A program made the translations under genes and the position numbers. The notes beneath the pieces are model-generated. The model was not told where the DNA came from. It saw only the letters and a program-made list of their open reading frames with translations, and searched no databases. A DNA stretch of 64,000 nt from contig JAOPZA010000174.1 of the NCBI GenBank assembly GCA_025964325.1, positions 3,327-67,326 of the forward strand, in the 5' to 3' direction. This stretch comes from Conexibacter sp. (lineage in GTDB: Bacteria; Actinomycetota; Thermoleophilia; Solirubrobacterales; Solirubrobacteraceae). This document shows, one piece after another, positions 28,106-55,489 of this stretch (positions within the stretch are counted from its first letter, which is position 1; each line of letters begins with the position of its first letter).

Positions 28106-30190
28106 ATGAGCGATGCGTCCACGCCCCCAGCGCACGCGAGTTCCCCCGGCGTCGCGGGCGACGATCCCAGCCGTGGAACTCGCAATGCGAAGCACCGCCT
28201 TCCGGAGCGCGACCGTCCGTGGCTGATGCGGACGTACGCCGGCCACTCGACCGCGGAGAAGTCGAACGAGCTCTACCGCGGCAACCTCGCGAAGGGCCAG
28301 ACGGGGCTCTCGATCGCCTTCGACCTGCCGACGCAGACGGGCTACGACCCCGATCACGAGCTGGCGCGCGGCGAGGTCGGCAAGGTCGGCGTGCCGGTCG
28401 CGCACAAGGGCGACATGGAGACGCTGCTCGACGGCATCCCGCTCGACCAGATGAACACGTCGATGACGATCAACGCGACGGCCGCCTGGCTGCTGGCGCT
28501 CTACATCGTCGCGGCCGAGGACCAGGGCGTCGGCGCCGACGCGCTTCAGGGCACGACGCAGAACGACATCATCAAGGAGTACCTGAGCCGCGGCACCTAC
28601 GCCTTCCCGCCGGCTCCCTCGATGCGGCTGATCGCCGACATGGTCGCCTACACCGTCGAGCAGGTGCCGAGGTGGAACCCGATCAACATCTGCTCCTACC
28701 ACCTGCAGGAGGCGGGCGCGACGCCCGTGCAGGAGATCGCCTACGCGATGAGCACCGCGATCGCCGTCCTCGACGAGGTCCGCCCGCGCGTGCGCGAGGA
28801 GCTGATGGGCAGAGTCTTCTCGCGCATCTCGTTCTTCGTCAACGCCGGGGTGCGGTTCATCGAGGAGCACGCCAAGCTGCGCGCGATGGCGGTCCTGTGG
28901 GACGAGCTCGGCCGCGAGCGCTACGGCGTCACGGACGAGAGCCAGCGCCGCTTCCGCTACGGCGTGCAGGTCAACTCGCTCGGCCTGACGGAGGCGCAGC
29001 CGGAGAACAACGTCCAGCGGATCGTGCTTGAGGCGCTCGCGGTCACGCTCGGGCGCGACGTCCGCGCCCGAGCCGTGCAGCTGCCCGCCTGGAACGAGGC
29101 GCTCGGACTGCCGCGACCGTGGGACCAGCAGTGGTCGCTGCGGCTGCAGCAGGTGCTGGCGTTCGAGACCGACCTGCTCGAGTACCCGGACATCTTCGAG
29201 GGCTCGGTCGTGATGCAGGGGCTCGTCGGCGAGCTGCTCGCCGGCGCCCGCGCGGAGATCGCGATCGTCGCCGAGCACGGCGGCGCCGTCGAGGCGGTGC
29301 CGTACATGAAGTCGGCGCTGGTCGAGTCCCACCGCGAGCGGATCCGCCGGATCGAGACCGGCGAGCTGACCGTCGTCGGCCAGAACAGATTCACCGAGAC
29401 CGAGCCCTCGCCGCTGACGGCCGACGGCGACGGCGGGATCCTCGTCGTCGACCCCGATGTCGAGCGGGGACAGAAGGAGGCGCTCGCGGCGTGGCGCGCG
29501 GCGCGCGACCAGGCGGCCGTCGACGGCGCGCTCGCGGAGCTGGCGCGCGTCGCCGGCAGCGACGAGAACGTGATGCCGGCGACGATCGCCGCCGCACGCG
29601 CCGGTGCGACGACGGGCGAGTGGGCGCAGACGCTGCGCGACGCGTTCGGCTCCTACCGCGGCCCGACCGGCGTCGGCGAGGCCGTCGCGCTCGGCGACGC
29701 CTCGCTCGAGGACGTGCGCGACGAGGTCGAGCGGCTCTCCGAGGCGCTCGGGCGACGGGTCAAGATCCTCGTCGGCAAGCCCGGCCTCGACGGCCACTCG
29801 AACGGCGCCGAGCAGATCGCGGTCGCCGCGCGCGACGCCGGCATGGAGGTCGTCTACGAGGGGATCCGCCTGACGCCGGCGCAGATCGCGGCCTCGGCGC
29901 TGCAGGAGGGCGTCCACGTCGTCGGCCTCTCGATCCTCTCCGGCTCCCATCGCGAGTTGATCCCGTCGGTGACGGCGGCGCTGCGCGAGGCCGGCGTCGG
30001 CGACGTGCCCGTGATCGTCGGCGGGATCATCCCGACGGCCGACGTCGCGGCGCTGCGCGCGGCCGGCGTCGCCGCCGTCTACACGCCGAAGGACTTCGAC
30101 ATCTCGCGCATCATGCGCGACATCGTCGCGCTGGTGAGCGACCGCAACGGCCTGTCGGCGACATCCGCCGCCGACTCCCGCTCGACGTAG
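28106..30190 (+). CDS. meaA: B12-dependent ethylmalonyl-CoA mutase (Ecm/MeaA)
   Basis: RDRPWLMRTYAGHS, LSIAFDLPTQTGYD, NICSYHLQEAGATP, GKPGLDGHSNGAEQIA; TACAAT 7 nt upstream. Confidence 0.93.
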   Translation: MSDASTPPAHASSPGVAGDDPSRGTRNAKHRLPERDRPWLMRTYAGHSTAEKSNELYRGNLAKGQTGLSIAFDLPTQTGYDPDHELARGEVGKVGVPVAHKGDMETLLDGIPLDQMNTSMTINATAAWLLALYIVAAEDQGVGADALQGTTQNDIIKEYLSRGTYAFPPAPSMRLIADMVAYTVEQVPRWNPINICSYHLQEAGATPVQEIAYAMSTAIAVLDEVRPRVREELMGRVFSRISFFVNAGVRFIEEHAKLRAMAVLWDELGRERYGVTDESQRRFRYGVQVNSLGLTEAQPENNVQRIVLEALAVTLGRDVRARAVQLPAWNEALGLPRPWDQQWSLRLQQVLAFETDLLEYPDIFEGSVVMQGLVGELLAGARAEIAIVAEHGGAVEAVPYMKSALVESHRERIRRIETGELTVVGQNRFTETEPSPLTADGDGGILVVDPDVERGQKEALAAWRAARDQAAVDGALAELARVAGSDENVMPATIAAARAGATTGEWAQTLRDAFGSYRGPTGVGEAVALGDASLEDVRDEVERLSEALGRRVKILVGKPGLDGHSNGAEQIAVAARDAGMEVVYEGIRLTPAQIAASALQEGVHVVGLSILSGSHRELIPSVTAALREAGVGDVPVIVGGIIPTADVAALRAAGVAAVYTPKDFDISRIMRDIVALVSDRNGLSATSAADSRST
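28136..28183. mobile_element. 48-bp miniature inverted-repeat element in frame in the Ecm N-terminus
   Basis: GCGAGTTCC...GGAACTCGC termini; GAGTTCCCCCG and GCCGTGGAACTC shared exactly with intergenic 55385-55431. Confidence 0.65.
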
Positions 30191-30246
30191 CCGCGAAAGA
30201 CTTCGCCCGGCGGCTCCTTCGCGCGCGCCCGGTAGCTTCCATCCGC

Positions 30247-31209
30247 GTGACCCGCGATGGAGCAGACCTCGGTGCGCGGCTGCGCGGGGGTGACCTGACG
30301 GTCGCGCCGGCGGTGCTGAACCTGGTCGAGAACCGCACACCGGCGGCGCAGCCGCGGATCGCGGCGCTGCTGGCCGAGGTCGCGCCGGCCGCGCTCGGCG
30401 GCGAGGCGCCGGGGCACGTCATCGGGCTCACGGGACCGCCCGGGGCCGGCAAGTCGACGCTCCTGTCGCAGCTGCTGGCCGGCTGGCGGGCACGCGACCG
30501 ATCCGTCGCCGTGCTGGCGGTCGATCCGTCCTCGAAGCGCTCCGGCGGCGCGCTCCTCGGCGACCGCGCGCGGATCGACTTCGACCCCGGCGACCGCGCC
30601 GTCTTCATCCGCTCGATGGCGGCCGGCGACCGCCTCGGCGGCCTCGCGCCGGCGACGCGGGCCGCCGCCCACGCGCTCGCCGCCGCGTTCGACGTCGTCG
30701 TGATCGAGACGGTCGGCGTCGGCCAGTCCGAGACCGAGGTCGCCGACGTCGCCGACACCGTCGCCGTCGTGGTCCAGCCGGGCTCCGGCGACGCGCTGCA
30801 GTTCCTCAAGTCCGGGATCATGGAGATCCCCGACGTGCTCGTCGTGACGAAGGCCGACCTCGGCCAGCTCGCGGTCCGCGCGCGGCGCGACCTGCACGCC
30901 GCGCTGCGCTCGCTCGGTGCGCGCGAGACGGCGGTCGTGGCGGTCAGCGCGGTGCCGCCGGCCGCTGGCGTGGAGGAGCTGCTCGACGCGCTCGACGCCC
31001 ACCGCGCGCGCGGAGGGGTCGCGGCGCGGCGCCTGCGCGCCCGCCGCCTCCACGCGCTCGCCGACTTCGCCGAGGAGCACGGCAGCCGCGGGATGCGGGC
31101 GCTCGGCGGGCGCCGCGCCGCCGAGCGCTGGCTCGCCGAGCAGGACCCTGGCCTCGACGTCGCCGCCCTCGGCCGCGGTCTGGCGGCGCGGGCCGGCGAG
31201 GGCGGCTAG
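30247..31209 (+). CDS. meaB: MeaB/ArgK-family GTPase (mutase chaperone)
   Basis: GLTGPPGAGKST, AVDPSS, GALLGDRAR, IETVGVGQSE, VTKAD. Confidence 0.92.
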   Translation: MTRDGADLGARLRGGDLTVAPAVLNLVENRTPAAQPRIAALLAEVAPAALGGEAPGHVIGLTGPPGAGKSTLLSQLLAGWRARDRSVAVLAVDPSSKRSGGALLGDRARIDFDPGDRAVFIRSMAAGDRLGGLAPATRAAAHALAAAFDVVVIETVGVGQSETEVADVADTVAVVVQPGSGDALQFLKSGIMEIPDVLVVTKADLGQLAVRARRDLHAALRSLGARETAVVAVSAVPPAAGVEELLDALDAHRARGGVAARRLRARRLHALADFAEEHGSRGMRALGGRRAAERWLAEQDPGLDVAALGRGLAARAGEGG

Positions 31210-32162
31210 CCGAGTCGCGCGCGCAGCTCGTCCGCGACCCGCGTGGGGCGGCGCGTCACGTCGTCGTACGTGTAGTGGAGGACGACGTACCCCTGGAGCA
31301 TCAGCGCGTTCGCCTTGCTGCGGTCGCGCCGGAAGGCGCGGCGGGTGTGATGGAAGGGGTGGCCGTCGAGCTCGACGACGAGGCGGTGCTGCGGCCAGAG
31401 GGCATCGACCTCGTAGCCCTCGACGCGGGCGTTGATCCGCGGACGAGGCAGTCCGCGGTCTTCGACCAGTGCCAGGAAGCGCTCCTCCAGTTGCGAGCGG
31501 GTGAGCGTCGCGCCGTGGGCTCGGTGCTCGCCGAGCACCGCCCGCAGCACGGCGTCGCCCCGCCCCCGGCGCCCGCGGACGCGCGCCCGCACAGCCTCGA
31601 GCCTGTCGACGTCGAGAACGCCGAGCCGCTCCGCCTCGCTGAGGGCACGGGCCACGTGCTCCCGCGGCACGACGCCGGCGAGATCCACGAGCGTTCGAGC
31701 GACCGTCGTCGTCGGGATGCCGGCTCGAAGGGCGACATCGCGCCGATCGAGGCGAGAGCGATGGAGATCGACGCCTGGGAGACCGGCGCGACCGCGGGTC
31801 GGCGTGGTGACGTCGATCCGCGCACGGTTCGACGGCCGGAGGCCGTGGAGCGCGGCCGCGTCGCGGTGGCTCAGGGCCGCTCCGTCTCCCACGGCCAGCA
31901 CCGCCGCGAGCCACCACCCCTCCCGGCGCAGCCGCTCGTGCCCGACCGCGTAGACGCCGCGATGGAGGCGGATCAGGCGGCCCGCGCGCATCCGCACCTC
32001 GATCTCCTTCGGGGTCACCCCGCCGACGGCGAGCTGCCGCCGAGCCACCACGCCGTGCTGCGCCGCCGCCAAAGCCGCGATCGCCACATCCGCCGGGTGC
32101 GGCCGGGGAGCACGGCACCTCTGCTCCCCTACAAGGGGAGCAACATCGACGTCCTCGGGCAT
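31206..32162 (-). CDS. AbiEi-like HTH + DUF559 (Vsr-like endonuclease) protein; start uncertain
   Basis: AAQHGVVARRQL, LHRGVYAVGH, TTVARTLVDLA, EVDALW, VVELDG..FH. Confidence 0.85.
   Translation of the reverse strand: MPEDVDVAPLVGEQRCRAPRPHPADVAIAALAAAQHGVVARRQLAVGGVTPKEIEVRMRAGRLIRLHRGVYAVGHERLRREGWWLAAVLAVGDGAALSHRDAAALHGLRPSNRARIDVTTPTRGRAGLPGVDLHRSRLDRRDVALRAGIPTTTVARTLVDLAGVVPREHVARALSEAERLGVLDVDRLEAVRARVRGRRGRGDAVLRAVLGEHRAHGATLTRSQLEERFLALVEDRGLPRPRINARVEGYEVDALWPQHRLVVELDGHPFHHTRRAFRRDRSKANALMLQGYVVLHYTYDDVTRRPTRVADELRARLG
32122..32142. repeat. Perfect 9-bp hairpin at the 5' end of the DUF559 gene
   Basis: TGCTCCCCT-ACA-AGGGGAGCA. Confidence 0.6.
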
Positions 32163-32263
32163 ACCCGTGACGTTGTCGAACCCTCAATCACCCGTGGGGC
32201 ACGGTTTGCGTCGAGACCGTTACAGTCGCCGCTCGATCGTCACGACTGAGGAGGGATGGCGAG

Positions 32264-33628
32264 TTGAGCAAGGGACGGCACGCCCTGATACGCATCGTCG
32301 TCGTGGCCGCGCTCGCGGCCGCGACCGTCGCAACGACGACCGGCGCCGCGGGCGCCGCGGGCGCCGCGAAGAAGGCCACGAACCAATGGCTCGGGATGCG
32401 AGTCCTGAACCAGGTGCACCAGGGCGGCGAGGACGAGGCGCCGTCCAATACGTCGTACGCCTACCAGTGGGGCTTGGAGCACGGCGGCGACATGATCGAG
32501 CTCGACGTCCACGCGACGAGAGACGGGCAGATCGTCGCGATCCACGACGACGCCGTCGACCGCACGACGAACGGCCACGGCCTCGTCTCGTCCTACACGC
32601 TCGCCAGGCTGCGGCGGCTCGACGCCGCCTACAACTTCATCCCGGGTCGCAACAACGTCGCCGGCCAGCCGGCCGCCGACTACCCGTTCCGCGGCATGCG
32701 GACGGGACGCACCCGGCCGCCGGCGGGCTTCGAGCCGGCCGACTTCCGGATCCCGACGCTGCAGGAGGTCTTCGACGCCTACCCCGACATCCCGGTGAAC
32801 GTCGAGATCAAGGGTCAGACCGCGCAGGAGAAGCTCCGCGTCGCGAAGCTGCTCGCGCAGCTGATGAAGACGACGAAGAAGCGCGACGTGATCGTCGTCT
32901 CCTTCGATCAGAGAGCGGTCGACCGGTTCCACCAGCTGGCGCCGGACGTCGACCTCGCCCCGGGCGTCGACGGCGAGTCGGGCTTCCTGCTCGGCAACGT
33001 GCGCCCGCCGGCCGGGACGAAGGCGCTGCAGCTGCCGATCACCTACCAGCTCGGCGCGATCAGATATCAGGTGATCACCCCCGCGAACGTGCTGAAGGCG
33101 CACCGTGCCGGCTACGCGGTCCACGTCTACCTCGACGATGCCGCGGCGGAGAACGACACGACGTACCAGACGCTGACGGACGCCTGCGTCGACGGCGTGA
33201 TGACCGCCGACCCGACGAGATTCGAGGCGTTCCTCGAGCGCACCGGCCAGCCGCGCAGCGGCGGTCAGGGAGGCGCCGACCACTGCGCCTTCGGCACGCC
33301 GAAGCCGCTCCCGCGCGGCTGCCGCCTGCGCGTCTCGAAGCTCGTGACGCCGCTCGAGAGCAGCCTCGCCGTGCGCGTGGAGCGGTGGGGCGACCTGCGC
33401 GGCGCGTGCAGCGGCCCGATCACGCTGACGCGTGGCAGCGGCCGCTCGCGGGTCGTCGTCGCCCGCGGACATGTGCAGGCCGCGGCCGGCCGCACGGCCG
33501 CCGTCGGCAGCGCCCGGCTGACGAGCGCCGGCGTCGCGCTCGTGCGAACGCATGCGCGGCTGTCGCTGGGCGCCGCGGTGCGAGCGACCACGACGGACGT
33601 GCGCGTGCTCGCGCTGAGCACTCGCTGA
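32264..33628 (+). CDS. Secreted glycerophosphodiester phosphodiesterase family protein with C-terminal extension
   Basis: Signal peptide, HQGGEDEAPSNT, IELDVHATRDG, IHD, NVEIK, DGVMTADP. Confidence 0.88.
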   Translation: MSKGRHALIRIVVVAALAAATVATTTGAAGAAGAAKKATNQWLGMRVLNQVHQGGEDEAPSNTSYAYQWGLEHGGDMIELDVHATRDGQIVAIHDDAVDRTTNGHGLVSSYTLARLRRLDAAYNFIPGRNNVAGQPAADYPFRGMRTGRTRPPAGFEPADFRIPTLQEVFDAYPDIPVNVEIKGQTAQEKLRVAKLLAQLMKTTKKRDVIVVSFDQRAVDRFHQLAPDVDLAPGVDGESGFLLGNVRPPAGTKALQLPITYQLGAIRYQVITPANVLKAHRAGYAVHVYLDDAAAENDTTYQTLTDACVDGVMTADPTRFEAFLERTGQPRSGGQGGADHCAFGTPKPLPRGCRLRVSKLVTPLESSLAVRVERWGDLRGACSGPITLTRGSGRSRVVVARGHVQAAAGRTAAVGSARLTSAGVALVRTHARLSLGAAVRATTTDVRVLALSTR

Positions 33629-33697
33629 GCCGGTGATCGCGGCGGTCGGGCGGCCCCTGGGCGCGCCCGCCCGCCGCGTACGTCAGAATCCCGGCCC

Positions 33698-33856
33698 GTG
33701 CTCGTCGACCTGCTCTCGCTGCTCGTCGCGTTCGTCGTGTGCACCGCACTCGCCGGGCTGCTGGGCGCCGCCAACCTCGGCACCGCGCTCACGTTCGGCG
33801 TCTTCGGCTTCACGCTCGTGCTGCTGTGGCAGCTCCTGCTGCGGCGCGATCGCTGA
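33698..33856 (+). CDS. 52-aa two-TM small membrane protein (not in the ORF track)
   Basis: MLVDLLSLLVAFVVCTALAGLLGAANLGTALTFGVFGFTLVLLWQLLLRRDR*; CAGAAT 8 nt upstream. Confidence 0.7.
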   Translation: MLVDLLSLLVAFVVCTALAGLLGAANLGTALTFGVFGFTLVLLWQLLLRRDR

Positions 33857-33877
33857 CGCTCCATTAGGGTGCGCATC

Positions 33878-34756
33878 GTGCCGGTCGCGATGCCGCAGGT
33901 CGATGGGATCACCCACCGCGAGGTCCAGGCCGGCGCGGTGCGCTTGCACGTCGCCGAGGGCGGTCCCGCCGACGCGCCGCCGGTCGTGCTGCTCCACGGC
34001 TGGCCGCAGCACTGGTGGATCTGGCGCGACGTGCTCGGCCCGCTCGCCGCCGACCACCGTGTGATCGCGCCGGACCTGCGCGGGCTCGGGTGGAGCGACG
34101 CGCCGAGGAGCGGCTATCGCAAGCAGCAGCTCGCCGACGACGTGATCGCGCTGCTCGACGCGCTCCGGCTCGAGCGCGTCGACCTGATCGGCCACGACTG
34201 GGGCGGGTTCGCCGGCTTCCTCGTCTGCCTCACCGCGCCCGAGCGGATCGGGCACTACGTCGCCTGCTCGATCCCGCACCTGTGGCCCGACACGAGCGAG
34301 CGACCGAGCATCAGACGCCTCCTCGGGCTGTGGTACCAGGCCGTGCTGGCGGCGCCGCTGCTCGGCAGCGCGGCGCTGCGCGGCGGCCAGTTCCCGGCGA
34401 GAATCCTGCAGGGGGCGCGAGAGCACGGGCGTTACAGCGCCGCCGAGCTGGCGACGTACGTCGACGTGCTGCGCCAACCGGCGAACGCCCACGCGAGCCA
34501 GCAGTACTACCGCGAGTTCCTGCTGCACGAGCTGAGACCGCTCGCCGCCGGCGCCTTCCACGCCCGGTCGCTCACCACGCCGACGCGGCTGCTGTGGGGC
34601 CGCCAGGACCCGATCGTCGCCGGCTCGCACGACGACGAGCACCGCGCCTACGCGCCGCAGATGGAGATCACGTGGGTCGAGGAGACCGGCCACTTCCTCC
34701 CGGAGGAGCGGCCGCAGGTCGTCGTCGAGCACGCGCGCGAGCTGTTCGCGAGCTGA
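33878..34756 (+). CDS. Alpha/beta hydrolase (epoxide hydrolase-like)
   Basis: LLHGWPQHWW, GHDWGG, LWGRQDP, GHFLPEE; TAGGGT 7 nt upstream. Confidence 0.92.
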   Translation: MPVAMPQVDGITHREVQAGAVRLHVAEGGPADAPPVVLLHGWPQHWWIWRDVLGPLAADHRVIAPDLRGLGWSDAPRSGYRKQQLADDVIALLDALRLERVDLIGHDWGGFAGFLVCLTAPERIGHYVACSIPHLWPDTSERPSIRRLLGLWYQAVLAAPLLGSAALRGGQFPARILQGAREHGRYSAAELATYVDVLRQPANAHASQQYYREFLLHELRPLAAGAFHARSLTTPTRLLWGRQDPIVAGSHDDEHRAYAPQMEITWVEETGHFLPEERPQVVVEHARELFAS

Positions 34757-34772
34757 GCTGGAGGCACCCGCA

Positions 34773-34800
34773 GCGGGCCCGGCTTCCATGCCGAGCCCGC
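34773..34800. terminator. Hairpin between convergent genes
   Basis: GCGGGCCCGGC / GCCGAGCCCGC, 1 mismatch. Confidence 0.5.
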
Positions 34801-34831
34801 CGCCGTCCTACGCGTCGGCGATCCCCCCGGA

Positions 34832-36210
34832 TCAGCGACCCGCTGCGCGCGCGTGCAGGGTGAAGGAGGCGGAGCTCGCGCCGCCCTTCCCGTCGGTCGC
34901 GTAGGCCGCCGCGACGCTCAATGTCGCGGGATTCGGCAGGCGCGGTGCGGCAATGCTCCAGCGGGTGCGATCCCGCCCCGCGGGCCGCGCGGCGTGCCAC
35001 CCGCCTTGGTCGATCCGCCAGCGGACGGATCGCGCGGGCGCGTCCGTGCGCAGTGCGACGGACCGTCCGCGCGTCAGCGCGACGCGCGGACGTGGTCGGG
35101 GCAGCACGCGCAGCACGTCGACGTGGGCGCCTCCCAAGCGCGCGCTCGTCCACGCGCCGGCCGACGCGCGCACGTCCGCCTGCTTGCCGCCCGCCCGCAC
35201 GGTCAGTGCTCGCGTCAGCCCGCCGCCGCATCCGGCCGGCAGGTCGAGCCGATCCAGGGCGAACGTTCTCCCGCCATCGATCTTGATGACGTACACCGAC
35301 GACGCCGTGTGCGCGATCGCGGTTGCACCATCCTTCCAACTCAGGCGCGCGTCGCAGCGCGGAAGGTAGGCCGAGACGCCAGCGCCGTTCCCAGCGACCC
35401 ACGTCACCTCGCCGGAGCCGAGCTGCGCCATCGGGTCGATCGTGATCGACGAATCGAGCACCGTCGGCTCTGCCGCTCCGCACCCCTGGATCGTCAGTGG
35501 CACCCTCTGCCAGTCGGTGCCGACGCCGTACCGGCCGTCGTAGCCATAGCGACCGAAGCGATACGACGCGCCAGGCGACGCCAGCGGACGGTGCAGCGGC
35601 GCGCACAGCGGCTTCACGAGAGCAGCCGCGTCGAGGTCGGTCGTCTCGCTCCAGGTCCCGTCGTCCGTGCGTGTGACGCCCGTGCGCCAGTCGATCCACG
35701 AGGCAGGGCCCGTGCTCGTCAATCCCTCGATCCAGCGGGAGCCGACCGCGTCGGGGATGTACGGCTCGCCGCTTCCTCCCCACGCCGTGACGCCGGGAAC
35801 ATCGTGCCACGTCCGCGTCGCGATGTGAAGACCGTCGGGTACCAGCCGGTCACGCCGTCGTCCGCCTTCCCGAGGCACATCACCAGCAGCTGCCCGCCGC
35901 CGATGGCAACGAGCTGGACCGTCGGATCGCTCGTCGCCGTACAGGCGAGGTGCACGGGCGTCTCGATCGGCGTGTTGGGGTACAGGGCGTCGATCACGCG
36001 CACGACGCCGGGGCGCAGCTCGAAGGCGACGTAGCGTGCGCCGTCGCCGATGACACCTGCATCGTTCCCGAGACGGGGGGCCACCGGCGAGATCTGCTGC
36101 CAAGCGGCGGCGTCCGCTGCACGTGCAAGCGCGAGCGCGCTCGTGCAGGAGACGAGGAGCACGACGACGGCGTGGCGGCGAAGACGAGATGAACGTCCGA
36201 GGATCGCCAT
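34832..36210 (-). pseudogene. Secreted hypothetical protein, paralogue of 36214-37608, with an apparent 1-bp deletion near 35827
   Basis: Signal peptide in frame 1 to ...WYPTVF, continuing in frame 2 as IATRTWHDVPG; restoring one base gives about 459 aa, matching the 464-aa neighbour. Confidence 0.75.
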
Positions 36211-36213
36211 CGC

Positions 36214-37608: not shown

Positions 37609-37679
37609 GACCGGCTACAACGGCCACGCGCCACGACAAGTTGCGCAGAATCTCCTGAGCGGTCGGTCCGGCGAGAGCC

Positions 37680-38273: not shown

Positions 38274-38327
38274 GCCACGATGGTAGACCGCCGCACGCCC
38301 CGGCCCGCCCCGGATAGGGTCCCCCGC

Positions 38328-44247: not shown

Positions 44248-44289
44248 CGTACGCCGCGAGGCGGACGCGCGTCCGCCTCAGGTCGTACG
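44248..44289. promoter_or_regulatory. 42-bp imperfect palindrome (22-bp perfect core) upstream of the ABC/TCS operon
   Basis: CGTACG...GAGGCGGACGCGCGTCCGCCTC...CGTACG. Confidence 0.5.
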
Positions 44290-44292
44290 CGG

Positions 44293-45318: not shown

Positions 45319-45357
45319 GATCAGAGGAGACGCCGCGGAGCGCTCGATCTTCCCACG

Positions 45358-45966: not shown

Positions 45967-46046
45967 GGGGCGCGATGAGTCACGAGATCGCTCCTCGGAG
46001 CCGGGCGCAGGGTCCCGCCGCTGCAGGCAGCATAGAATCCCCGTTC

Positions 46047-46613
46047 ATGGAGGGCTCCACCGAGACAGTCCGCAGCTGGTTGCGCTGCTATCGCTGCTGG
46101 TCGCAGAACCTCGAGGTGCAGGTGCACTACGAGGGGATCCACCGCATCGATCCGGCGACCGGCGAGCGCGCCGAGGTCGTCGACGAGATGCAGGAGGCGG
46201 TCGTGCAGTGCCTCGACTGCATGCACGACCAGCCGCACCTGGGCTTCCACAACGGCCGCGTCGAGCCGATCGAGGACCGCTGGGAGCGGATGGTCGCCGG
46301 CACTCCCTGGGTCGCCTCCTGCACCGTCACGGTCGAGGCCGACGACGTCGAGACCTGCTCCGGCCCGGAGGCCGGCGACGCACTCTCCTACGCCGCCTTC
46401 GGCGACCACGGCACGCGCGAGTTCTTCACCCACGTGCGCTTCCACAAGCACGAGGACGACCAGATCGTCGTCCACCTGCTGGTCGAGCTCTACGCGCGCT
46501 CGAGCGAGGAGGCGACCGACGTGCTGGAGACCGCCGCCCGCGGCTCGCTGACGATCACCTCGCTCGCCGAGGAGTCGCGCCCGCCCGCCTCGACCGGCGA
46601 CGACCGCCACTGA
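46047..46613 (+). CDS. Hypothetical protein with an N-terminal Zn-ribbon
   Basis: CYRC...CLDC; TAGAAT 8 nt upstream of ATG. Confidence 0.75.
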   Translation: MEGSTETVRSWLRCYRCWSQNLEVQVHYEGIHRIDPATGERAEVVDEMQEAVVQCLDCMHDQPHLGFHNGRVEPIEDRWERMVAGTPWVASCTVTVEADDVETCSGPEAGDALSYAAFGDHGTREFFTHVRFHKHEDDQIVVHLLVELYARSSEEATDVLETAARGSLTITSLAEESRPPASTGDDRH

Positions 46614-46676
46614 GCGGTCGGGCGGACGTTCGCGCCCGCCCGCCTCGACCGGCGACGACCGCCACTGAGCGGTCGG
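46575..46676 (+). repeat. Perfect 47-bp direct repeat duplicating the gene 3' end
   Basis: TCGCGCCCGCCCGCCTCGACCGGCGACGACCGCCACTGAGCGGTCGG at 46575-46621 and 46630-46676. Confidence 0.9.
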
Positions 46677-46724
46677 CCCGCCCGCGCCGCAGCGGCGCAG
46701 GCGGGACCACTCAGGACCGACGCC

Positions 46725-48536
<1,812 letters not shown>

Positions 48537-48550
48537 GTGATCTCCTCCGG

Positions 48551-49099
48551 TCATGCGACGTTGCCCTCCGCGCCGTTCGCGCTCACGCCAGGCGTCTTGC
48601 GGGGGACCAGGACGAGGCGCTTGAACTCCGCGACCAGCACGCCGTCCTGGTTCAGCACGCGCGTGTGGACCTTCACGACCCCGCGATCGAGCTTCGACTT
48701 CGACGGCTTGACGTCGAGCACCTCGGTCTCGCAGAAGAGGGTGTCCCCGTGGAAGACCGGATTCGGGTGGCTCAGCTCCTCGGTCGCGAGGTTCGCGATC
48801 GCCTTGCCGGAGATGTCCGAGACCGACATCCCGAGCGCGAGCGAGTAGACGAGCGGGCCGACGACGACGTTGCGGCCCTGCTGCGACCCGGCCGCGTAGA
48901 CGTCGTTCAGGTGCAGCGGGTGGTGGTTCATCGTGATGAGGCAGAAGAGGTGGTCGTCGGACTCGGTGACCGTCTTCGCGGGCCAGTGCTTGTAGACCGC
49001 GCCGACTTCGAACTCCTCCAGATAGCGGCCGTACGGGTGGGCGCCCGAGGCCTCGCGTGCCGCCTGGTCGGTTTCGACTCCTTGGGTGGTTTCGCTCAT
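48551..49099 (-). CDS. MaoC-family dehydratase (candidate mesaconyl-CoA hydratase)
   Basis: [27 protein letters not shown]. Confidence 0.85.
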
Positions 49100-49249
49100 G
49101 GGGTAGCTGGACCGTCCTGATTTCGCCGGGAGAAAGATGAGAAGTGTGACGTTTCCGCGTCGCGGATGCGTAGTTCCATAGTGAGTGCATCGGCGCGAGG
49201 GGGTCGCGGTCTACGATTCGCCGGCCCAGACCCAAGGAGATCCCAGCTC

Positions 49250-50311
49250 GTGCGCAATCCCCGTGACTTCGGAAAGCCCCTCGCCGTCGGTGCTCCCGAA
49301 CCGCTCCTCGACGTCCCGTTCAAGCCCTCGCGGATGATCCACTTCCTCGACGCGAGCAACGACAAGATGGTCGCGAAAGTTCCCGACATCGCACGCAAGA
49401 CCGACATCCTGCTCGGCAATCTCGAGGACGCCGTACCGGTCGATCGCAAGGAGGCGGCGCGCGAGGGGCTGATCAGAGTCGGGCGCGAGTTCGACCTCGG
49501 AGAGACGCAGCTGTGGACGCGCGTCAACAGCCTCGACAGCCCGTGGGTGCTCGACGACCTGCTGCGGCTCGTCGGCGAGATCGGCGACAGACTCGACGTG
49601 ATCATGGTGCCGAAGGTCGAGGGCGCCTGGGACATCCACTACGTCGACCGCCTGCTCGCACAGCTGGAGGCCAAGCACGGCGTGCAGAAGCCGATCCTCG
49701 TGCACGCGATCCTCGAGACCTCGCTCGGCGTCGCGAACCTGGAGGAGATCGCCGCCGCGAGTCCGCGCATGCAGGGCATGAGCTTCGGTCCGGCCGACCT
49801 CGCCGCCTCGCGCCGGATGAAGACGACGCGCGTCGGCGGCGGTCATCCGGGCTACGTCGTGATCGCCGATCCGAGCGAGGACGGCGGCCCGCGCGCGACC
49901 GCGCAGCAGGACCTCTGGCACTACTCGATCGGCCGCATGGTCGACGCCTGCACGGCGACCGGGATCCTGCCCTTCTACGGCCCCTTCGGCGACATCTCCG
50001 ACGACCTCGGCTGCGAGGCGCAGTTCCGCGCCGCGTTCCTGATGGGCTGCGTCGGCGCCTGGTCGCTGCACCCGCGACAGATCGAGATCGCCAAGCGCGT
50101 CTTCAGCCCCGATCCCGACGAGGTCAGATTCGCCAAGCGCGTGATCGAGGCGATCCCCGACGGGCGAGGCGTTCACATGCTCGACGGCAAGATGCAGGAC
50201 GATGCGACCTGGAAGCAGTGCCAGGTGATGGTCCACCTCGCGGAGCTGCTGGCGCAGAAGGATCCCGAGCTGGCCGAGGCCTACGGGTTCGTCACCACGA
50301 CAGGGAGCTGA
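49250..50311 (+). CDS. mcl: Malyl-CoA/beta-methylmalyl-CoA lyase (CitE/HpcH superfamily)
   Basis: [60 protein letters not shown]. Confidence 0.88.
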
Positions 50312-50313
50312 GC

Positions 50314-51522
50314 GTGCGTTTCTTCGAGTACGAGTCGCGGCAGATCGTCGCGAAGGCCGGCATCCCGGTCTCCAGACACGGCTTCGCCACCACCCCGGAG
50401 GAGGCGCGGCGGATCGCCGAGGAGATCGCCGGCCCCGTCGTGATCAAGTCGCAGGTGCTGACCGGCGGCCGCATGAAGGCCGGCGGCGTGAAGTTCGCCG
50501 ACACGCCCGACGAGGCGGCCGAGCACGCCGCGTTCGTCCTGCAGCTGGAGATCAACGGCCACATGCCGCGGGGCGTACTGGTCGACTCGCGCGTGTCGGT
50601 CAAGCAGGAGTACTACGCCGGCGTCGTCTGGGACGGGATCCGCAAGCAGCCGGTGATGCTCTTCAGCGACATGGGCGGGATCGACATCGAGGAGGTCGCC
50701 GAGACCCATCCCGACCACGTCGGCCGCGGCTGGTTCTCGAACCTGACCGACGTCTCGGACTACCAGGCGAAGCAGGTGATCGCCTCGATCGGCGTGACCG
50801 GCGCCGCGCTGACGCGCGCCACGCCGATCCTCACGCGGCTCGCGCAGCTGTTCGTCGAGCGCGACATGACGCTCGCGGAGATCAACCCACTGGCGCAACT
50901 CGAGGACGGCTCGTTCGTCGCCGTCGACGCGCACATGGACATGGAGAACGAGGCCCGCCCACGCCAGAAGCAGCTCCTGAAGGAGCTCGGCGTCGGCGAC
51001 GAGGAGACGCGCCAGGCGCGCGAGGCGACCCCGTTCGAGCTCGCCGGCGAGGCCGTCGACGCGGCGTCGCACCGCGGCGTCGCCGGCAACGTGACGGAGT
51101 TCGACGGCAACCTCGGGCTCGTGATCGGCGCCGGCGGCGGCTCGCTGACGCTCTTCGACGCGGTCCGCGCTCATGGCGGCAAGCCCGCCAACTACTGCGA
51201 GATCGGCGGCAACCCGTCGGTCGAGAAGGCGTGCGGCCTGGCGAAGCTCGTGCTGCAGAAGCCGGGCGTCGACAAGATCGCGGTGATGATGTCGATCGTC
51301 TCCAACACGCGCGTCGACATCGTCGCGCGCGGCGTCATCAAGGCGTGCGTGGAGCTGGGCTACGACCCGGGCGAGAAGATCGCGATCTTCCGCATCCCGG
51401 GCGCCTGGGAGGACGAGGGCTTCAAGATCCTCGAGAGATACGGAGTCGAGTACTGCGACCGCTCCGTCTCGATGCACGAGGCTGCGCGCCGCGCCGTCGA
51501 GAAGATCGGAGTGGCCGCCTGA
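50314..51522 (+). CDS. ADP-forming acyl-CoA ligase, ATP-grasp (beta) subunit, SucC-like but divergent
   Basis: FEYESRQI, KSQVLTGGRMKAGGV, EINPL; IGAGGGSLTLFD where SucC has NGAGLAMATMD. Confidence 0.85.
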   Translation: MRFFEYESRQIVAKAGIPVSRHGFATTPEEARRIAEEIAGPVVIKSQVLTGGRMKAGGVKFADTPDEAAEHAAFVLQLEINGHMPRGVLVDSRVSVKQEYYAGVVWDGIRKQPVMLFSDMGGIDIEEVAETHPDHVGRGWFSNLTDVSDYQAKQVIASIGVTGAALTRATPILTRLAQLFVERDMTLAEINPLAQLEDGSFVAVDAHMDMENEARPRQKQLLKELGVGDEETRQAREATPFELAGEAVDAASHRGVAGNVTEFDGNLGLVIGAGGGSLTLFDAVRAHGGKPANYCEIGGNPSVEKACGLAKLVLQKPGVDKIAVMMSIVSNTRVDIVARGVIKACVELGYDPGEKIAIFRIPGAWEDEGFKILERYGVEYCDRSVSMHEAARRAVEKIGVAA

Positions 51523-52445
51523 TGTCGATCCTGATCGATGCGACGACGACCTTCATCGTCCAGGGCATCACCGGCCGCGAGGCCGTCAACCTGACCCGCG
51601 AGTGCCTCGACTACGGCGAGGGCGCGCGCGTCGTCGGCGGCGTGACGCCGGGCCGCAAGGGCCGCGAGGTCCACGGCGTACCCGTCTTCGACACCGTCGC
51701 GCAGGCCGTCGAGCACCACGGCGGGCCGATCGACGGCTCGGTCGTGACGGTGCCGCCGGCCTTCACGAAGGACGCGGTGCTGGAGGCGATCGCGAACGGC
51801 GTCAAGCTCGTCGTGATCGTGACCGAGCGGATCCCGCGACGCGACGTCGCCGTGATGGTCGAGTTCGCCAGGCAGCACGACGCGCGCATCATCGGGCCCA
51901 ACTGCCTCGGCATCATCGTGCCCGACGTGATCAAGATGGGCGGCATCGGCGGCCCGGCGAGAGACGCGGCGAAGGCGTACACGCCGGGGCCGGTGGGCGT
52001 CATCTCGCGCTCCGGCGGCATGACGACCGAGATGTCCTCGACGCTGAGCGCCGCCGGCCTCGGCCAGTCGACGGCCGTCTCGATCGGCGGCGACGCCATC
52101 ATCGGCTCGTCCTACGCGGAGCTGATGCCGCTGTTCGAGGCCGACGAGCAGACGCAGGCGATCGTGATCTACACCGAGCCGGGCGGCCGCATGGAGGCCG
52201 AGCTGGCCGCGTGGGTCACCGAGCACGACTCTCGCCTGCCGATCGTCGCGTTCATGGCGGGCCGCTTCATGGACGAGATGCCGGGCATGAGCTTCGGCCA
52301 CGCCGGCACGATCGTCGAGGGCAAGGCCGACACGGCCGCGGAGAAGATCGCGCGCCTCGCCGAGGCCGGCATCGTCGTCGCGGAGGAGATCTCGCAGATC
52401 CCGGAGATCGTCAAGAGCAAGATCGCCGAGAGGAGTGCCGTCTGA
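51522..52445 (+). CDS. ADP-forming acyl-CoA ligase, CoA-binding (alpha) subunit, SucD-like
   Basis: IVQGITG, VGGVTPGRKG, IIGPNCLGII, SRSGGMT, FGHAG phospho-His motif. Confidence 0.9.
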   Translation: MSILIDATTTFIVQGITGREAVNLTRECLDYGEGARVVGGVTPGRKGREVHGVPVFDTVAQAVEHHGGPIDGSVVTVPPAFTKDAVLEAIANGVKLVVIVTERIPRRDVAVMVEFARQHDARIIGPNCLGIIVPDVIKMGGIGGPARDAAKAYTPGPVGVISRSGGMTTEMSSTLSAAGLGQSTAVSIGGDAIIGSSYAELMPLFEADEQTQAIVIYTEPGGRMEAELAAWVTEHDSRLPIVAFMAGRFMDEMPGMSFGHAGTIVEGKADTAAEKIARLAEAGIVVAEEISQIPEIVKSKIAERSAV

Positions 52446-52687
52446 TGCCCGCGCTGTTCATCAACGTCGAGGTCGACGAGCAGGTCGCGCAGGATCCCGC
52501 GCTGGCAGCGAAGCTGACCGAGGTCTGCCCCGTCGACATCTACGCGCAGAAGGGCGACGGGACGCTCGCGATCGTCGAGGAGAACCTCGACGAGTGCGTC
52601 CTCTGCCGCCTCTGCATCGACGCGGCGCCGCACGGCAGCGTGCGCGTCGTGAAGCTCTACGAGGACGGATCGGTCCTGCAGTCCTGA
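52445..52687 (+). CDS. Ferredoxin (FixX-like), probably one [4Fe-4S] cluster
   Basis: EVCPVDIY...DECVLCRLCIDAAP; ATG overlaps the upstream TGA. Confidence 0.85.
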   Translation: MPALFINVEVDEQVAQDPALAAKLTEVCPVDIYAQKGDGTLAIVEENLDECVLCRLCIDAAPHGSVRVVKLYEDGSVLQS

Positions 52688-52779
52688 GCGGCGACCGGCT
52701 TCGCGGCGACCGGCTTCGCGGCGACCGGCTTCGCCGGTCACTTGGGAGTTCGCCTGGCGGCGAACTCCCGGGAGTGACC
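52688..52779. repeat. 3 x 15-bp tandem repeat followed by an 11-bp TGGC-loop hairpin with GGGAGTTC/GAACTCCC ends
   Basis: (GCGGCGACCGGCTTC)x3 at 52688-52732; GGGAGTTCGCC-TGGC-GGCGAACTCCC at 52744-52769. Confidence 0.85.
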
Positions 52780-53760
52780 GATCAACTGCGCCGCGGGTCG
52801 CTCCTGCACGAGCGGCCCGTAGGCGTCCGGGCGACGGGTCGTGAGGAACGGAAAGAGCGTCAGCCAGTCGCCGCGCTGGTCGAGGTCGAGATCGGCGACC
52901 AGCACGGCGGACCGATCGCGCGGCGCCTGGGCGAGCACACGGCCATACGGATCGGAGATGAACGACGAGCCGTAGAAGCGCAGCGGCCCCTCCTCCCCGA
53001 TGCGGTTGACGGCGACCATGAAGGTGCCGTTCGCGATCCCGTTGGCGACGATCACCTTCTCCCACAGTGGCTCGGTGTCGAAGTCGGGATGGTCGGGCTC
53101 GGAGCCGATCGCGGTCGGGTAGACGATCACCTCGGCGCCGGCGAGCGAGTAGGCCCGCGCGAGCTCCGGGAACCACTGGTCCCAGCAGGTCGGGAAGCCG
53201 AGCCGCGCATCGCCGAGACCGACGACGGGGAACGCGTCGACGGCGGGGCCGGCCGGGCCCGGACGGAAGTATCTGTCCTCGTAGTAGCCGGCCGTGACCG
53301 GGATGTGGACCTTCCGCGTGCGCGCGATGAGCGTTCCGTCGGGCGCCGCGACGATCGCCGTGTTGAAGCCGCGCGCATCCCCGTCCTCCTCGGCCGCACG
53401 CTCGTACAGCGACGCGTGCACGTGGACGCCGGTCGCGGCCGCCATCCGCTGCGCGAAGCGCGTCGTCGGACCGTCGGGGATCGCCTCCGCCATCGCCTGC
53501 GCCTCGCCGAGCGCGTCGGGCGTGATCGCGAAGTACGGCGAGAGCGTCAGCTCCTGGAGGCAGACGAGCCGGGCGCCGCGACCGGCCGCGAGCTCGATCC
53601 CCTCCCCCAGCGACGCCTCGTGCTCGGCCGCGTCGGCATGCCAGCGCTGCTGCACGAGGGCGATGCGGAAGGGTGCGCGCCTCGCCGTCGTCTCGTCCGC
53701 GCGCGCGAGCGAGCGTGGCACGCCGCCGGTCGCCTCGATCAGCTCAAAACGCGCGGTCAT
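52738..53760 (-). CDS. aguB: N-carbamoylputrescine amidase-like nitrilase (CN hydrolase)
   Basis: Catalytic E (LQEL), K (TRKVHIP), C (PTCWDQWFPE), YPTAIGSEP; follows agmatine deiminase. Confidence 0.85.
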   Translation of the reverse strand: MTARFELIEATGGVPRSLARADETTARRAPFRIALVQQRWHADAAEHEASLGEGIELAAGRGARLVCLQELTLSPYFAITPDALGEAQAMAEAIPDGPTTRFAQRMAAATGVHVHASLYERAAEEDGDARGFNTAIVAAPDGTLIARTRKVHIPVTAGYYEDRYFRPGPAGPAVDAFPVVGLGDARLGFPTCWDQWFPELARAYSLAGAEVIVYPTAIGSEPDHPDFDTEPLWEKVIVANGIANGTFMVAVNRIGEEGPLRFYGSSFISDPYGRVLAQAPRDRSAVLVADLDLDQRGDWLTLFPFLTTRRPDAYGPLVQERPAAQLIGHSREFAARRTPK

Positions 53761-54851
53761 CGAACGTCCTCGGAGTTGGAAGAACGAGCCGCGGGGGCGA
53801 GTTCTTCCGACGGAACCCCGAGGCCCCCGGCCGAGGGGCTCCGCGGAATCTGCTGCGTGATGCAGTGCACGCCGCCGCCGCCGAGCGCCAGCACGCGTCC
53901 GGGGACGCCGACGATCTCGCGACCGGGCAGGAGTCTTCCGAGCCGTGTGAGCGCCTCCTCGTCCATGTCGTGGTCGAGCTGGGCGAGCGGGACGATCGCG
54001 GCGCCGTTGCAGAGGTAGAAGTTCGTGTAGGGGACCGCGACCGTCTCGCCCTCGTCGCGCCGGCTGCGCGGCAGCAGCTCGAGCTCGACGACGTCGAGCC
54101 CCGCGGCGCGCAGCCGGCGGAGGTTCTCCTCGGCGGCCGGGCGGTTCGGGTCGTCGTCGTCGGCGACGGTCTGCAGGAGGACGCGCCCGGGCGCGAGGAA
54201 GGCGCAGATGTTGTCGACGTGGCCGTCGGTGTCGGCGTCCTCGACGAGTCCCTTCCCGAGCCAGACGATCCTCTCGGCGCCGAGCTGGCCGCGCAGCTCC
54301 TCCTCGATGTCCTCGCGGTTGAGGAGCGGATTGCGGTTCGGGTTCAGCAGGCACTGCTCCGTCGTCACGAGCGTGCCCTCGCCGTCGACGGCGATCGCGC
54401 CGCCCTCGAGCACGAGCGGCGAGGCGAAGCGCTCGATCCCGAGCCGCTCGAGCAGCAGCCGCGCGATCGCGGCGTCGTGGTCGTAGGGCGTGAAGGCCTC
54501 GCCCCAGGCGTTGAAGCGGAAGTCGATGCCGGCACGGGCACCCTCCGGCCCGGTCACGACGATCGGTCCCGAGTCGCGCAGCCACGAGTCGTCGATCGGC
54601 AGCGCGACGACCTCGACGTTCTCCGACGGGACGCGGCGGCGCGCGTCCTCGGCGTGCGCGGGGTCGGCGACGAGCAGGACCGGCTCGAAGGCGGCGACCG
54701 CCGCGACGACGGCGGCGTGCTCGTCACGGGCCTCCTCGATCGTCGCTCCGCGCCAGGCCTCCTGCCGCGCCGGCCAGGCCATCAGCGTCCGTTCGTGCGG
54801 CGCCCACTCGGCCGGCATCCGCAGGCCGGCGGCGCGTTCGCTCGTGCTCAT
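53757..54851 (-). CDS. aguA: Agmatine deiminase
   Basis: MPAEWAPH, DSWLRDSGP, LEGGAI..DGEGT, DTDGHVDN, GGGVHCITQQIP, then a ~27-aa repeat-derived tail. Confidence 0.93.
   Translation of the reverse strand: MSTSERAAGLRMPAEWAPHERTLMAWPARQEAWRGATIEEARDEHAAVVAAVAAFEPVLLVADPAHAEDARRRVPSENVEVVALPIDDSWLRDSGPIVVTGPEGARAGIDFRFNAWGEAFTPYDHDAAIARLLLERLGIERFASPLVLEGGAIAVDGEGTLVTTEQCLLNPNRNPLLNREDIEEELRGQLGAERIVWLGKGLVEDADTDGHVDNICAFLAPGRVLLQTVADDDDPNRPAAEENLRRLRAAGLDVVELELLPRSRRDEGETVAVPYTNFYLCNGAAIVPLAQLDHDMDEEALTRLGRLLPGREIVGVPGRVLALGGGGVHCITQQIPRSPSAGGLGVPSEELAPAARSSNSEDVR
53768..53846. mobile_element. About 79-bp palindromic element in frame in the agmatine deiminase C-terminus
   Basis: GTTGGAAGAAC...GTTCTTCCGAC hairpin; homologous to 41131-41196. 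Confidence 0.7.
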
Positions 54852-54938
54852 GATCGGCGAGCGTAGCGGGCGCACGTGCGCCTCGCCGCCGCTTCGCGGT
54901 CCCGCCGCCCACCGCGCGGCGGTGTGCGGCGTCCGCGG

Positions 54939-55313
54939 CTACCCGCGGGCGCGGCGTGTGCGGGAGCGCTCTTCCTGCTTCTCGACGACGTTGACGACGA
55001 GCTTGATGATCTGCTCGACGCCGGTCGCCTTCGCGTCGCCGTGCTCGAACGCCTCGCGCCACTGCTTGACGGTGCCGTTGACCGCGAGCTCATTGAAGTT
55101 CGCGCGCGGCACTTCGAGGCGGACGCGGGCATCCGACGCGATGTCCTTCGTGATGATCGGCCCGGGCAGCTCCACGCGGAACATCTGGATGTCGCCGCGG
55201 CCGCGCAGCTCCAGCCCGACGACGAGCTTGAGCGGCTCGAGCGCCGGCACCTCATGGAGGAACCGCCGTACGCCCTGCTCGATCAGCGCCTTGGTGTCCT
55301 TCGGGGTGCTCAG
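54939..55313 (-). CDS. Hypothetical protein (SCP2-like); start possibly CTG
   Basis: (L/M)STPKDTKALIEQGVRRFLHEVPAL...; TAGACT 7 nt upstream of CTG. Confidence 0.7.
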   Translation of the reverse strand: MSTPKDTKALIEQGVRRFLHEVPALEPLKLVVGLELRGRGDIQMFRVELPGPIITKDIASDARVRLEVPRANFNELAVNGTVKQWREAFEHGDAKATGVEQIIKLVVNVVEKQEERSRTRRARG

Positions 55314-55382
55314 GCGGCGGAGTCTAGTGAAGTGACGCGACGACGCCTCCACCCGTGCGTCGGTAACCGGGGAGAAGCCCCC

Positions 55383-55489
55383 GGGAGTTCCCCCGAACGC
55401 CACGAAACCACCGCACCCTGCCGTGGAACTCCCATGGCGAAGCCCTCCCCGAGACGCCACGCGCTCGCCCCGCGAGGGAGGGCTTCGCC
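55383..55489. repeat. Intergenic composite: GGGAGTTCC...GGAACTCCC element plus a GGCGAAGCCCTCCC/GGGAGGGCTTCGCC hairpin
   Basis: 9-bp terminal IR at 55383-55391 / 55425-55433; shares internal blocks with 28138-28181. Confidence 0.75.

Follow-up and report, generated by a model that had tools for sequence, protein, structure and literature searches.

A 64,000-nt stretch of a Conexibacter genome (hereafter the window; C166:3327-67326 of the source assembly, G000) contains two copies of a 61-65 nt repeat that we call family A. One copy is translated as part of an acyl-CoA mutase, the product of a gene labeled ecm, and the other lies between two convergent genes. [quoted passage not shown] An initial annotation of the window had described GAGTTC/GAACTC elements both between genes and in frame inside proteins. 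This description was correct, with in-frame copies in at least four proteins of the source genome and empty sites in relatives, and the selfish or recombinogenic character that the annotation proposed for the elements may apply as well.

Three GAGTTC-N(5-35)-GAACTC pairs are present in the window (28138-28181, 52746-52767, and 55385-55431), with the sequences originally quoted for them, whereas 100 dinucleotide-preserving shuffles of the window averaged 0.14 pairs and none reached three. The whole source assembly (251 contigs, 4.34 Mb, 72.6% GC), a metagenome assembly with 3.85% contamination, contains 44 such pairs that fall into two size groups, 44-48 nt and 21-22 nt. When members of the long group were aligned with their flanks, conservation was found to extend beyond the inverted repeat into a 3' tail, AATGCGAAGCAC. 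Copies of this long repeat, family A, were searched with an nhmmer profile and then with a covariance model trained on 18 copies. The unit consists of CG[C/G]GAGTTCC, a 30-33-nt core whose sequence varies, GGAACTC[G/C]C, and the tail AAT-GCGNAGC-AC. Sequence logos of 90 distinct copies, pooled from the source genome and its relatives, place the 5' boundary at (C)CG[C/G]GAGTTCC, with all conservation gone at position -4, and the 3' boundary after GGAACTC-[G/C]C-AAT-GCGNAGC-AC, with conservation ending at +14 past GGAACTC. The core between the arms measures 30-33 nt in 85 of these 90 copies.

The outer stem of family A, 9-10 bp long, is 98.3% paired. Compensatory changes at its ends, first noticed in the window, hold across the family: among 77 distinct copies, the closing pair is C-G in 62 and G-C in 14, while the remaining stem positions are nearly invariant in sequence. 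Variant compensatory arms, AAGTTCC/GGAACTT and AACTTCC/GGAAGTT, are also present. The tail is GCGNAGC in 60 of 76 distinct copies and varies only at N (A in 49, G in 5, C in 5, and T in 1); most other tails are CCGAAGG or a longer stem-loop, such as GCCGAGC-TC-GCTCGGC or GGCAATCGCC-GCCA-GGCGATTGCC. GCGNAGC is known as a "mini-hairpin DNA" motif (PMC13037366). Since the 3' tail contains a second hairpin, mostly the GCGNAGC mini-hairpin and sometimes a longer stem-loop, each unit is a sense-strand module of two hairpins: hairpin 1, AAT, hairpin 2, AC. Compensatory changes are seen in both hairpins. We found no support for the core as a selected hairpin, as its minimum free energy matched that of shuffled cores (z of -0.3 for the sense and -0.7 for the antisense strand); the antisense core is slightly more stable than the sense core, and half of this difference is due to composition. 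We also considered and rejected two kinds of repeat array. Arrays of family A comprise only two to four units with near-identical cores, and most copies are solitary, unlike a CRISPR array; array size, the near-identical cores, and a lack of core-site motifs likewise exclude integron attC sites. A resemblance of tandem junctions to an ECF-sigma promoter (GGAAC-N18-GTT), judged by eye, was set aside. The two copies in the window are composed as follows.

28135..28195, + strand: family A copy 1, within the acyl-CoA mutase coding sequence; covariance-model score 73.4 bits
28136-28183, + strand: hairpin 1 of copy 1, arms GCGAGTTCC / GGAACTCGC, core of 30 nt
28184-28195, + strand: tail of copy 1, AAT-GCGAAGC-AC; the whole copy is translated as (H)ASSPGVAGDDPSRGTRNAKH
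55382..55445, + strand: family A copy 2, between convergent genes; closing pair GG/CC, core of 33 nt, tail ATGGCGAAGCCC; covariance-model score 66.9 bits
55436..55493, + strand: long second hairpin predicted by folding, GGCGAAGCCCTCCC...GGGAGGGCTTCGCC, which absorbs the tail of copy 2

The long second hairpin at 55436-55493 takes in positions 55490-55492, where the minus-strand gene at 55490-58213 has its stop codon (CTA in + strand letters). The orthologous gap in one relative, G014, is empty and only ~10 nt long. No Rfam family matched the window at the gathering threshold, and 55300-55560 gave only noise at E-values up to 10.

With nhmmer, we detected 19 clear copies at 13 loci in the source genome, in addition to a diverged tandem set on contig C231 with the arms AACTTCC/GGAAGTT; the covariance model gave 26 matches. 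The genome-wide repetition that the initial annotation called for is thus present. Covariance-model matches occurred in nine of 27 Conexibacter genomes (G000, 26; G002, 39; G008, 31; G011, 36; G012, 32; G022, 25; G018, 14; G005, 4; G007, 1), that is, 1-39 in the eight besides G000, with scores of 45-79 bits and E-values down to 1e-18. G008 is a complete genome in a single contig of 6,359,369 bp, and G007 is a fragmentary assembly. The type strain C. woesei DSM 14684 has ~31 copies, among them those at 5591423, 3437967, 1726149, and 5926009 of its single contig. The model had no match in the 18 other congeners, in 10 other genera of the family, or in the order's remaining families. When one genome per species of bacteria and archaea was scanned for exact 18-mers, multi-copy occurrence was confined to Conexibacter, with single chance matches elsewhere. 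In the published literature that we searched, there was no account of repeats in Conexibacter.

The mutase gene and its upstream box are placed as follows.

28106..30190, + strand: acyl-CoA mutase gene ("ecm"), 694 amino acids; MCM-like large subunit fused to a B12-binding domain
28093..28098, + strand: TACAAT, a -10-like box 7 nt upstream of the ATG at 28106

The product scores under the NCBIfam equivalog cut-offs, so its identity as Ecm is plausible but unproven. The repeat forms codons 11-30, and the NCBIfam profiles begin at residue 35-36. The N-terminus reads MSDASTPPAH-ASSPGVAGDDPSRGTRNAKH-RLPERDRPW, while more than 25 orthologues whose N-terminus is readable, including 20 same-genus sequences, begin with MSDA(P/S)R(P/S)PHRLP(Q/E)PDRPW and lack the insert, the outcome expected of an inserted element when orthologue alignment was first suggested. 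The element had been described as 48 bp, or 16 codons. With the tail included the unit is longer, and the insert spans 28136-28195, from GCGAGTTCC through AATGCGAAGCAC, which amounts to 60 nt or 20 codons (21 relative to the closest orthologue). CCTACA(A/C)T-N5-7-ATG is found in 15 of the 20 same-genus orthologues, and the remaining five read CTTACAAT or CTCTACAAT; from this conservation and spacing, the TACAAT box may be a leaderless-type promoter. Since both the box and the ATG are conserved in orthologues, the start codon is set upstream of the repeat. An alternative start downstream can be rejected, as there is no in-frame ATG, GTG, or TTG before the conserved DRPW. Both junctions carry GCAC, which is possibly a duplication of 4 nt or a stretch of micro-homology but is also the element's own end. 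The site is filled only in the source genome, and because no other genome carries a repeat in the mutase gene, this copy is the youngest insertion that we observed.

Three further proteins of the source genome, a carbamoyl-phosphate-synthase-like ATP-grasp enzyme, a UvrD/PcrA-like helicase, and the second of two adenosylhomocysteinases (AhcY), carry N-terminal copies. All four proteins read the repeat in the same frame, ASSPG...RGTRNAKH, and in all four the protein family profiles start right after the insert. The inserts measure 60 nt in the mutase and 57-60, 54-57, and 144-147 nt (two copies) in the others. To compare junctions, the flanks of eight loci besides ecm were searched in eight relatives and the junctions then aligned; the sizes of filled and empty coding sites always differed by multiples of 3 nt. 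The length bias anticipated for coding copies was also apparent in the cores, which are 30 or 33 nt at the five best-anchored coding loci, compared to 42% of all copies with those lengths.

The ATG of the ATP-grasp gene (C167) overlaps the upstream stop codon (ATGA) in every species. The source genome reads MTNS[ASSPGAGGADRRRGTPKPQ]AVLLTGVGKRYD and G007 reads likewise, while the empty sites of G018 (MSRAVLLTG) and G008 (MNGRAVLLTG) are 60 and 57 nt shorter, respectively, and G005 retains a remnant of 27 nt. All species keep a GTG start, within CAGGGTG, for the helicase gene (C94). The site is filled in G000 and G018 (MPSSG[SSPQRSAASHRRRGTPNSQD]GLSPAQQ) and empty, 54-57 nt shorter, in G002, G008, G014, and G007. 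G011 (L153, C5:17600-17900) contains an in-frame solo tail at this position, TGTGCGAAGCAC (GTG TCC TGT GCG AAG CAC GAC), with no hairpin 1, which suggests that hairpin 1 can be cleanly deleted to leave a footprint of four codons.

The second of the two tandem adenosylhomocysteinase genes (C11) has two copies before the conserved DIADLGL in G000 and G018 and an empty site in five genomes. In the source genome, its sole in-frame start is a GTG created within the first copy; in several species, it is uncertain where the gene begins. We also observed that across these tandem genes (C11:55798-59161; L142-L148, L037) the second gene has no ATG, GTG, or TTG before DIADLGL in G008, G022, G014, or G018. 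The distance from the stop codon of the first gene to the DIADLGL anchor is 16, 19, 28, 49, 160, or 163 nt in six genomes, all 1 mod 3, while two genomes in which the second gene has its own ATG deviate from this pattern (84 and 164 nt). This arrangement suggests frame-linked expression of the second gene, for example by frameshifting or unusual initiation.

Coding copies were also found outside this set. PurL of C. arvalis reads MSDVS[ASSREIADDGRSRGTRNAEH]AHRALGLTDSEY, a copy in G008 occupies the n-region of a lipoprotein signal peptide, and a HAD hydrolase in three species reads ...RGTRNAKH-(V/I)IFDCDG. Wherever a copy must be translated, its tail encodes RGT(R/P)NA(K/E)H or a close variant. 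Because all six frames of the conserved parts of the repeat are open, stop codons do not force this frame bias, and the simplest explanation may be selection for a hydrophilic reading rich in Ser, Pro, Gly, and Arg.

Comparison of orthologous sites indicates repeated gain and loss of copies, as the pattern of site sharing cuts across overall similarity and remnants of the repeat persist in G005, G011, and G007. The ATP-grasp copy is shared with G007, the helicase and adenosylhomocysteinase copies with G018 and not G007, and a copy on C117 with four other genomes and not G007. The convergent-gene site is filled in G000, G008, G022, G011, and G002 (the last by matching length only) and is an empty 10-13 nt in G007 and G014. 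Independent gain, precise loss, or allelic exchange may each have contributed to these patterns. Among orthologous copies, the left arm is 92% identical, the right arm and tail 87%, and the core 71% with its length kept, while flanking coding DNA is ~80% identical. Since arms and tail are more identical than the core, the ends of the repeat appear to be under constraint or homogenized while the core drifts.

Based on these comparisons, we propose that specific sites acquired and lost family A units while one Conexibacter subclade radiated. The host genome is very compact: only ~10 nt separate convergent genes, and many genes are leaderless or translationally coupled. For this reason, surviving insertions would fall into two classes. 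The first would lie within a few bases of a stop or start codon. The second would lie in a dispensable N-terminal protein tail where length and frame leave the open reading frame (ORF) intact, with a hydrophilic insert of 19-21 residues, ASSPG-x-RGTRNAKH, as the outcome. Spread may have occurred by copy-and-insert through a trans-acting factor for which the conserved arms and tail, in the form of single-stranded DNA or RNA, are the recognized feature; the coding copies may be neutral passengers.

We looked for such a factor among known mobilizing enzymes. PF01797 (Y1/RAYT) had no match in any of the 27 Conexibacter genomes at E<=0.001, while six of 14 control genomes matched, and a search with PF07282 (TnpB) found none. 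PF01548 (IS110) matched in seven genomes, only two of which (G007 and G002) bear the repeat; as its presence does not track the repeat, IS110 was rejected as the mobilizer. In the source genome, 18 of 20 matches to the right-end motif lie in family A copies and two lie beside a short hairpin of a separate family (family B, below) on C216, with no pairs spaced 0.1-6 kb like those of an insertion sequence (IS) with matching ends. The initial annotation had likewise named no proven mobilizing enzyme. A possible bias toward one replication strand in G008 was also discarded, as a hand count of 16 co-oriented copies versus 11 that were not, with the origin assumed near coordinate 1, was not significant.

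Several observations weigh against a mobile repeat family. No autonomous partner or transposase was found in the PF01797, PF07282, PF01548, and end-motif searches. No target-site duplication is definable, as the flank logos show at most a weak AC preference and no fixed duplication. Copy number is low, and the ecm insertion is known from one metagenome-assembled contig only. Old orthologous copies retain conserved arms and tails, a pattern that pure junk explains less well than host function or gene conversion would. The precision with which the tail end meets stop codons also exceeds what passive tolerance or available room alone would give.

Family A could instead be a host-serving RNA module, acting as a 3'-end hairpin (a terminator or exonuclease block) or as an intercistronic or 5' element, in which the 12-14-nt tail is a built-in spacer to the stop or start codon, spread is secondary, and copies are kept by selection. 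Among 91 distinct copies, 32 lie between co-directional genes in sense and 14 in antisense orientation, 18 between convergent genes, and 11 between divergent genes. Most copies outside the coding set adjoin a stop or start codon, and many are within 0-10 nt of a stop. In ~19 of 37 cases, GCAC at the end of the tail abuts an opposite-strand stop codon or shares one base with it (within 0-2 nt); in ~9, it meets a start codon (GCAC|ATG, GCACG|ATG, or GCAC|GTG). Where sites are empty, convergent genes are 10-13 nt apart, as in TAG-GTCCGCGCGC-TCA in G014. The excess of sense copies, this contact with stop and start codons, and the conservation of arms and tail over a drifting core would all suit an RNA module, as would the placement of copies within operons of ribosomal and core genes (rplL-rpoB, and ahead of obg) and the report that E. 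coli REPs <=15 nt from stop codons affect translation (PMC12306157). Some reverse-oriented copies also open GTG mini-ORFs that end at the start of the next gene. Of 62 reverse-oriented copies, 15 have a GTG at the upstream stop or overlapping it, and a few of these mini-ORFs (C33, L049) finish close to the following start codon; in DNA of 73% GC, all six frames are open anyway. We nevertheless consider an RNA module unlikely overall. The core is no more structured than shuffled sequence and there is no U-tract, the same genes in close relatives manage with empty sites, and the stem is conserved in sequence beyond mere pairing; copies in the N-terminal codons of four enzymes are also hard to reconcile with terminators.

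Individual intergenic loci showed further arrangements. Three tandem variant copies (AACTTCC/GGAAGTT; C231:11539-11700) lie between the L7/L12 gene (rplL) and a probable rpoB, and four copies that alternate with CCCCGCC-GCCA-GGCGGGG hairpins (C243:22958-23272) lie just upstream of an Obg-like GTPase gene; all of these genes were named by eye on the basis of motifs. At C180:11538-11700, a copy with a long second hairpin adjoins the 3' end of an opposite-strand tRNA gene. Contig C33 (1-209) begins with an M16 peptidase N-domain fragment (...FTDVDPERG) that runs into a TAG overlapping the repeat end and is followed by a complete paralogous M16 gene; either the first gene is cut short at the repeat, or the assembly broke at a repeat.

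A domesticated signal appears improbable. In this case, the large hairpin and the GNA mini-hairpin would form a bipartite single-strand signal read by a clade-specific factor on RNA or displaced DNA, and the coding copies would equip unrelated enzymes (acyl-CoA mutase, the second AhcY, UvrD-like helicase, ATP-grasp enzyme, PurL, and HAD hydrolase) with a shared N-terminal peptide, ASSPG...RGTRNAKH, or with a shared mRNA structure early in the coding region that co-regulates them. We give slightly less credence still to a binding site for a clade-specific nucleoid or regulatory DNA-binding protein, with two inverted GGAACTC half-sites at a fixed distance and the copies serving as a regulon or as chromosome-structuring sites. 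The half-site sequence is invariant, the 30-33 nt spacing is fixed while the spacer sequence is free, and many copies lie at the 5' ends of genes, all of which a binding protein could explain. However, the flanking genes are functionally unrelated, half of the copies follow stop codons or lie between convergent genes, tandem arrays occur, and no candidate protein was identified; the asymmetric mini-hairpin tail and the compensatory changes favor a folded single strand. Finally, chance GC-rich inverted repeats of independent origin, or an assembly chimera at ecm, might be suspected in a 251-contig metagenome assembly with 3.85% contamination and several copies near contig ends (e.g., C33 and C207), but this is effectively refuted for the family as a whole by the three window matches against 0.14 expected, the covariance-model scores, and the presence of the family in complete isolate genomes, including the 6.36-Mb single contig; the ecm insert, for its part, preserves the reading frame exactly.

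The third inverted repeat in the window, which the initial annotation had assigned to the same family, belongs to family B, a separate family of 22-26-nt units.

52744-52769: family B hairpin from folding, GGGAGTTCGCC-TGGC-GGCGAACTCCC, extended by GGTCACTT/AGTGACC to 52736..52779

This hairpin is positioned downstream of a stop codon and has no variable core. Its resemblance to family A is confined to the outer stem and the CAA(T/G)-linker architecture; it is an architectural relative and does not belong to that family. Family B has 12 copies in the source genome and none in 40 relatives. It falls within ~92 perfect hairpins with GCCA or TGGC loops, whose stem families include GAATCGGC (19), GGTTCGGC (12), and AGATCGGC (9). 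The whole source genome has 997 perfect hairpins (stem >=8 bp, 4-nt loop), and these two loops rank with the commonest in that set. These hairpins occur in mosaic arrays with other hairpins, and an array on C216 reads short hairpin-GCAATG-hairpin-CAC, the layout of the long family. The same genome contains 50 further perfect hairpins with a CAGA loop, the complement of which, TCTG, is not among the commonest loops; this points to another, strand-specific hairpin family. A 15-nt tandem repeat (GCGGCGACCGGCTTC) is present in three units at 52689-52733, directly after a stop codon and just before the short hairpin. Elsewhere in the window, a coupled gene junction on the minus strand (19455-19530) carries a single-copy bipartite hairpin, GGAAA...TTTCC, AA, TGAAGC...GCTTCA; its layout, hairpin-AATG-hairpin-CAC, is like that of the family A repeat, and its stems are unrelated.

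To our knowledge, in-frame palindromic inserts in proteins are textbook material for Rickettsia only, and REP-type repeats have mostly been catalogued outside Actinomycetota. The same phenomenon is now seen in a free-living, high-GC soil actinobacterium, with conserved starts and promoters, empty sites, and a single frame. The anatomy of the repeat, with sequence-conserved arms, a free core of fixed length, and a GCGNAGC mini-hairpin, may reveal the target of a mobilizing or binding factor. For annotation, gene callers will mis-start such genes or call the repeat as spurious N-terminal sequence.

Among known systems, RPEs are similar in that palindromic repeats occur between genes and in frame in unrelated housekeeping ORFs, add a peptide in a preferred frame, and have no dedicated transposase (PMC10969869, PMC3733652). 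RPEs are ~100-150 bp long (the short RPE-4 and RPE-6 are CGTC-tagged REPs), belong to Alphaproteobacteria, and insert anywhere in a protein, whereas the Conexibacter repeat is 61-65 nt, belongs to Actinomycetota (Thermoleophilia), has a variable core and a mini-hairpin tail, and places its coding copies within the first 5-45 codons. Its occurrence only in Conexibacter and the absence of an Rfam match argue against membership in RPE-1 to RPE-10, a comparison that involved no direct alignment to the RPE consensus sequences.

REPs, and the related BIMEs and REPINs, are also short interspersed hairpins downstream of genes and between convergent or co-directional genes, with tandem or mosaic arrays, occasional intragenic copies (including in repair genes), and a patchy occurrence among related species (PMC3733652, PMC12306157). 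A REP is a 20-40-nt palindrome with a GTAG or CGTC tag, whereas the Conexibacter ends are (C)CG[C/G]G... and ...GCAC; the unit is also longer, has a non-palindromic core of 30-33 nt, and is accompanied by no RAYT/Y1 in 27 genomes. Transposase-less REP classes are known. Intragenic REPs, some in repair genes, have already been described in a REP catalogue that does not include the phylum of Conexibacter among those covered (PMC3733652). That study cautions that "N-terminal intragenic REPs may be misannotations", a concern answered here because starts and promoters are conserved and the sites are empty in relatives.

Bacterial MITEs (e.g., Correia/NEMIS, RUP, and ERIC) resemble family A in having terminal inverted repeats (TIRs) around a non-coding core, in being non-autonomous, and in being able to fuse in frame with host ORFs. 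The Conexibacter repeat is below their usual 70-300 bp, has TIRs of 9-10 bp, and shows no demonstrated target-site duplication and no matching IS in the source genome. Mycobacterial interspersed repetitive units (MIRUs), reportedly described by Supply and colleagues in 1997, are actinobacterial repeats of 40-100 bp that are often tandem, lie between genes in operons, and sometimes form small ORFs touching flanking stops and starts. They resemble family A in being actinobacterial, short, and intergenic, and family A may form small ORFs of this kind as well; in contrast, MIRUs are not known to be built as hairpin modules around a variable core, and they mainly vary in tandem copy number.

The tail finds its closest counterpart in the mini-hairpin sites of the phage G4 origin, RSF1010 ssiA, and the N4 vRNAP promoters, in which GCGNAGC, with N free, or CCGAAGG stands beside a larger hairpin (PMC13037366). 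Those are single functional sites on phage or plasmid single-stranded DNA, whereas the Conexibacter repeat is dispersed in the chromosome. Collectively, these comparisons suggest that family A is best filed as a new family, apparently unrelated to RPEs, within the small palindromic repeat kind; the phenomenon itself is already known, and it is the two-hairpin anatomy with a mini-hairpin tail that is unusual.

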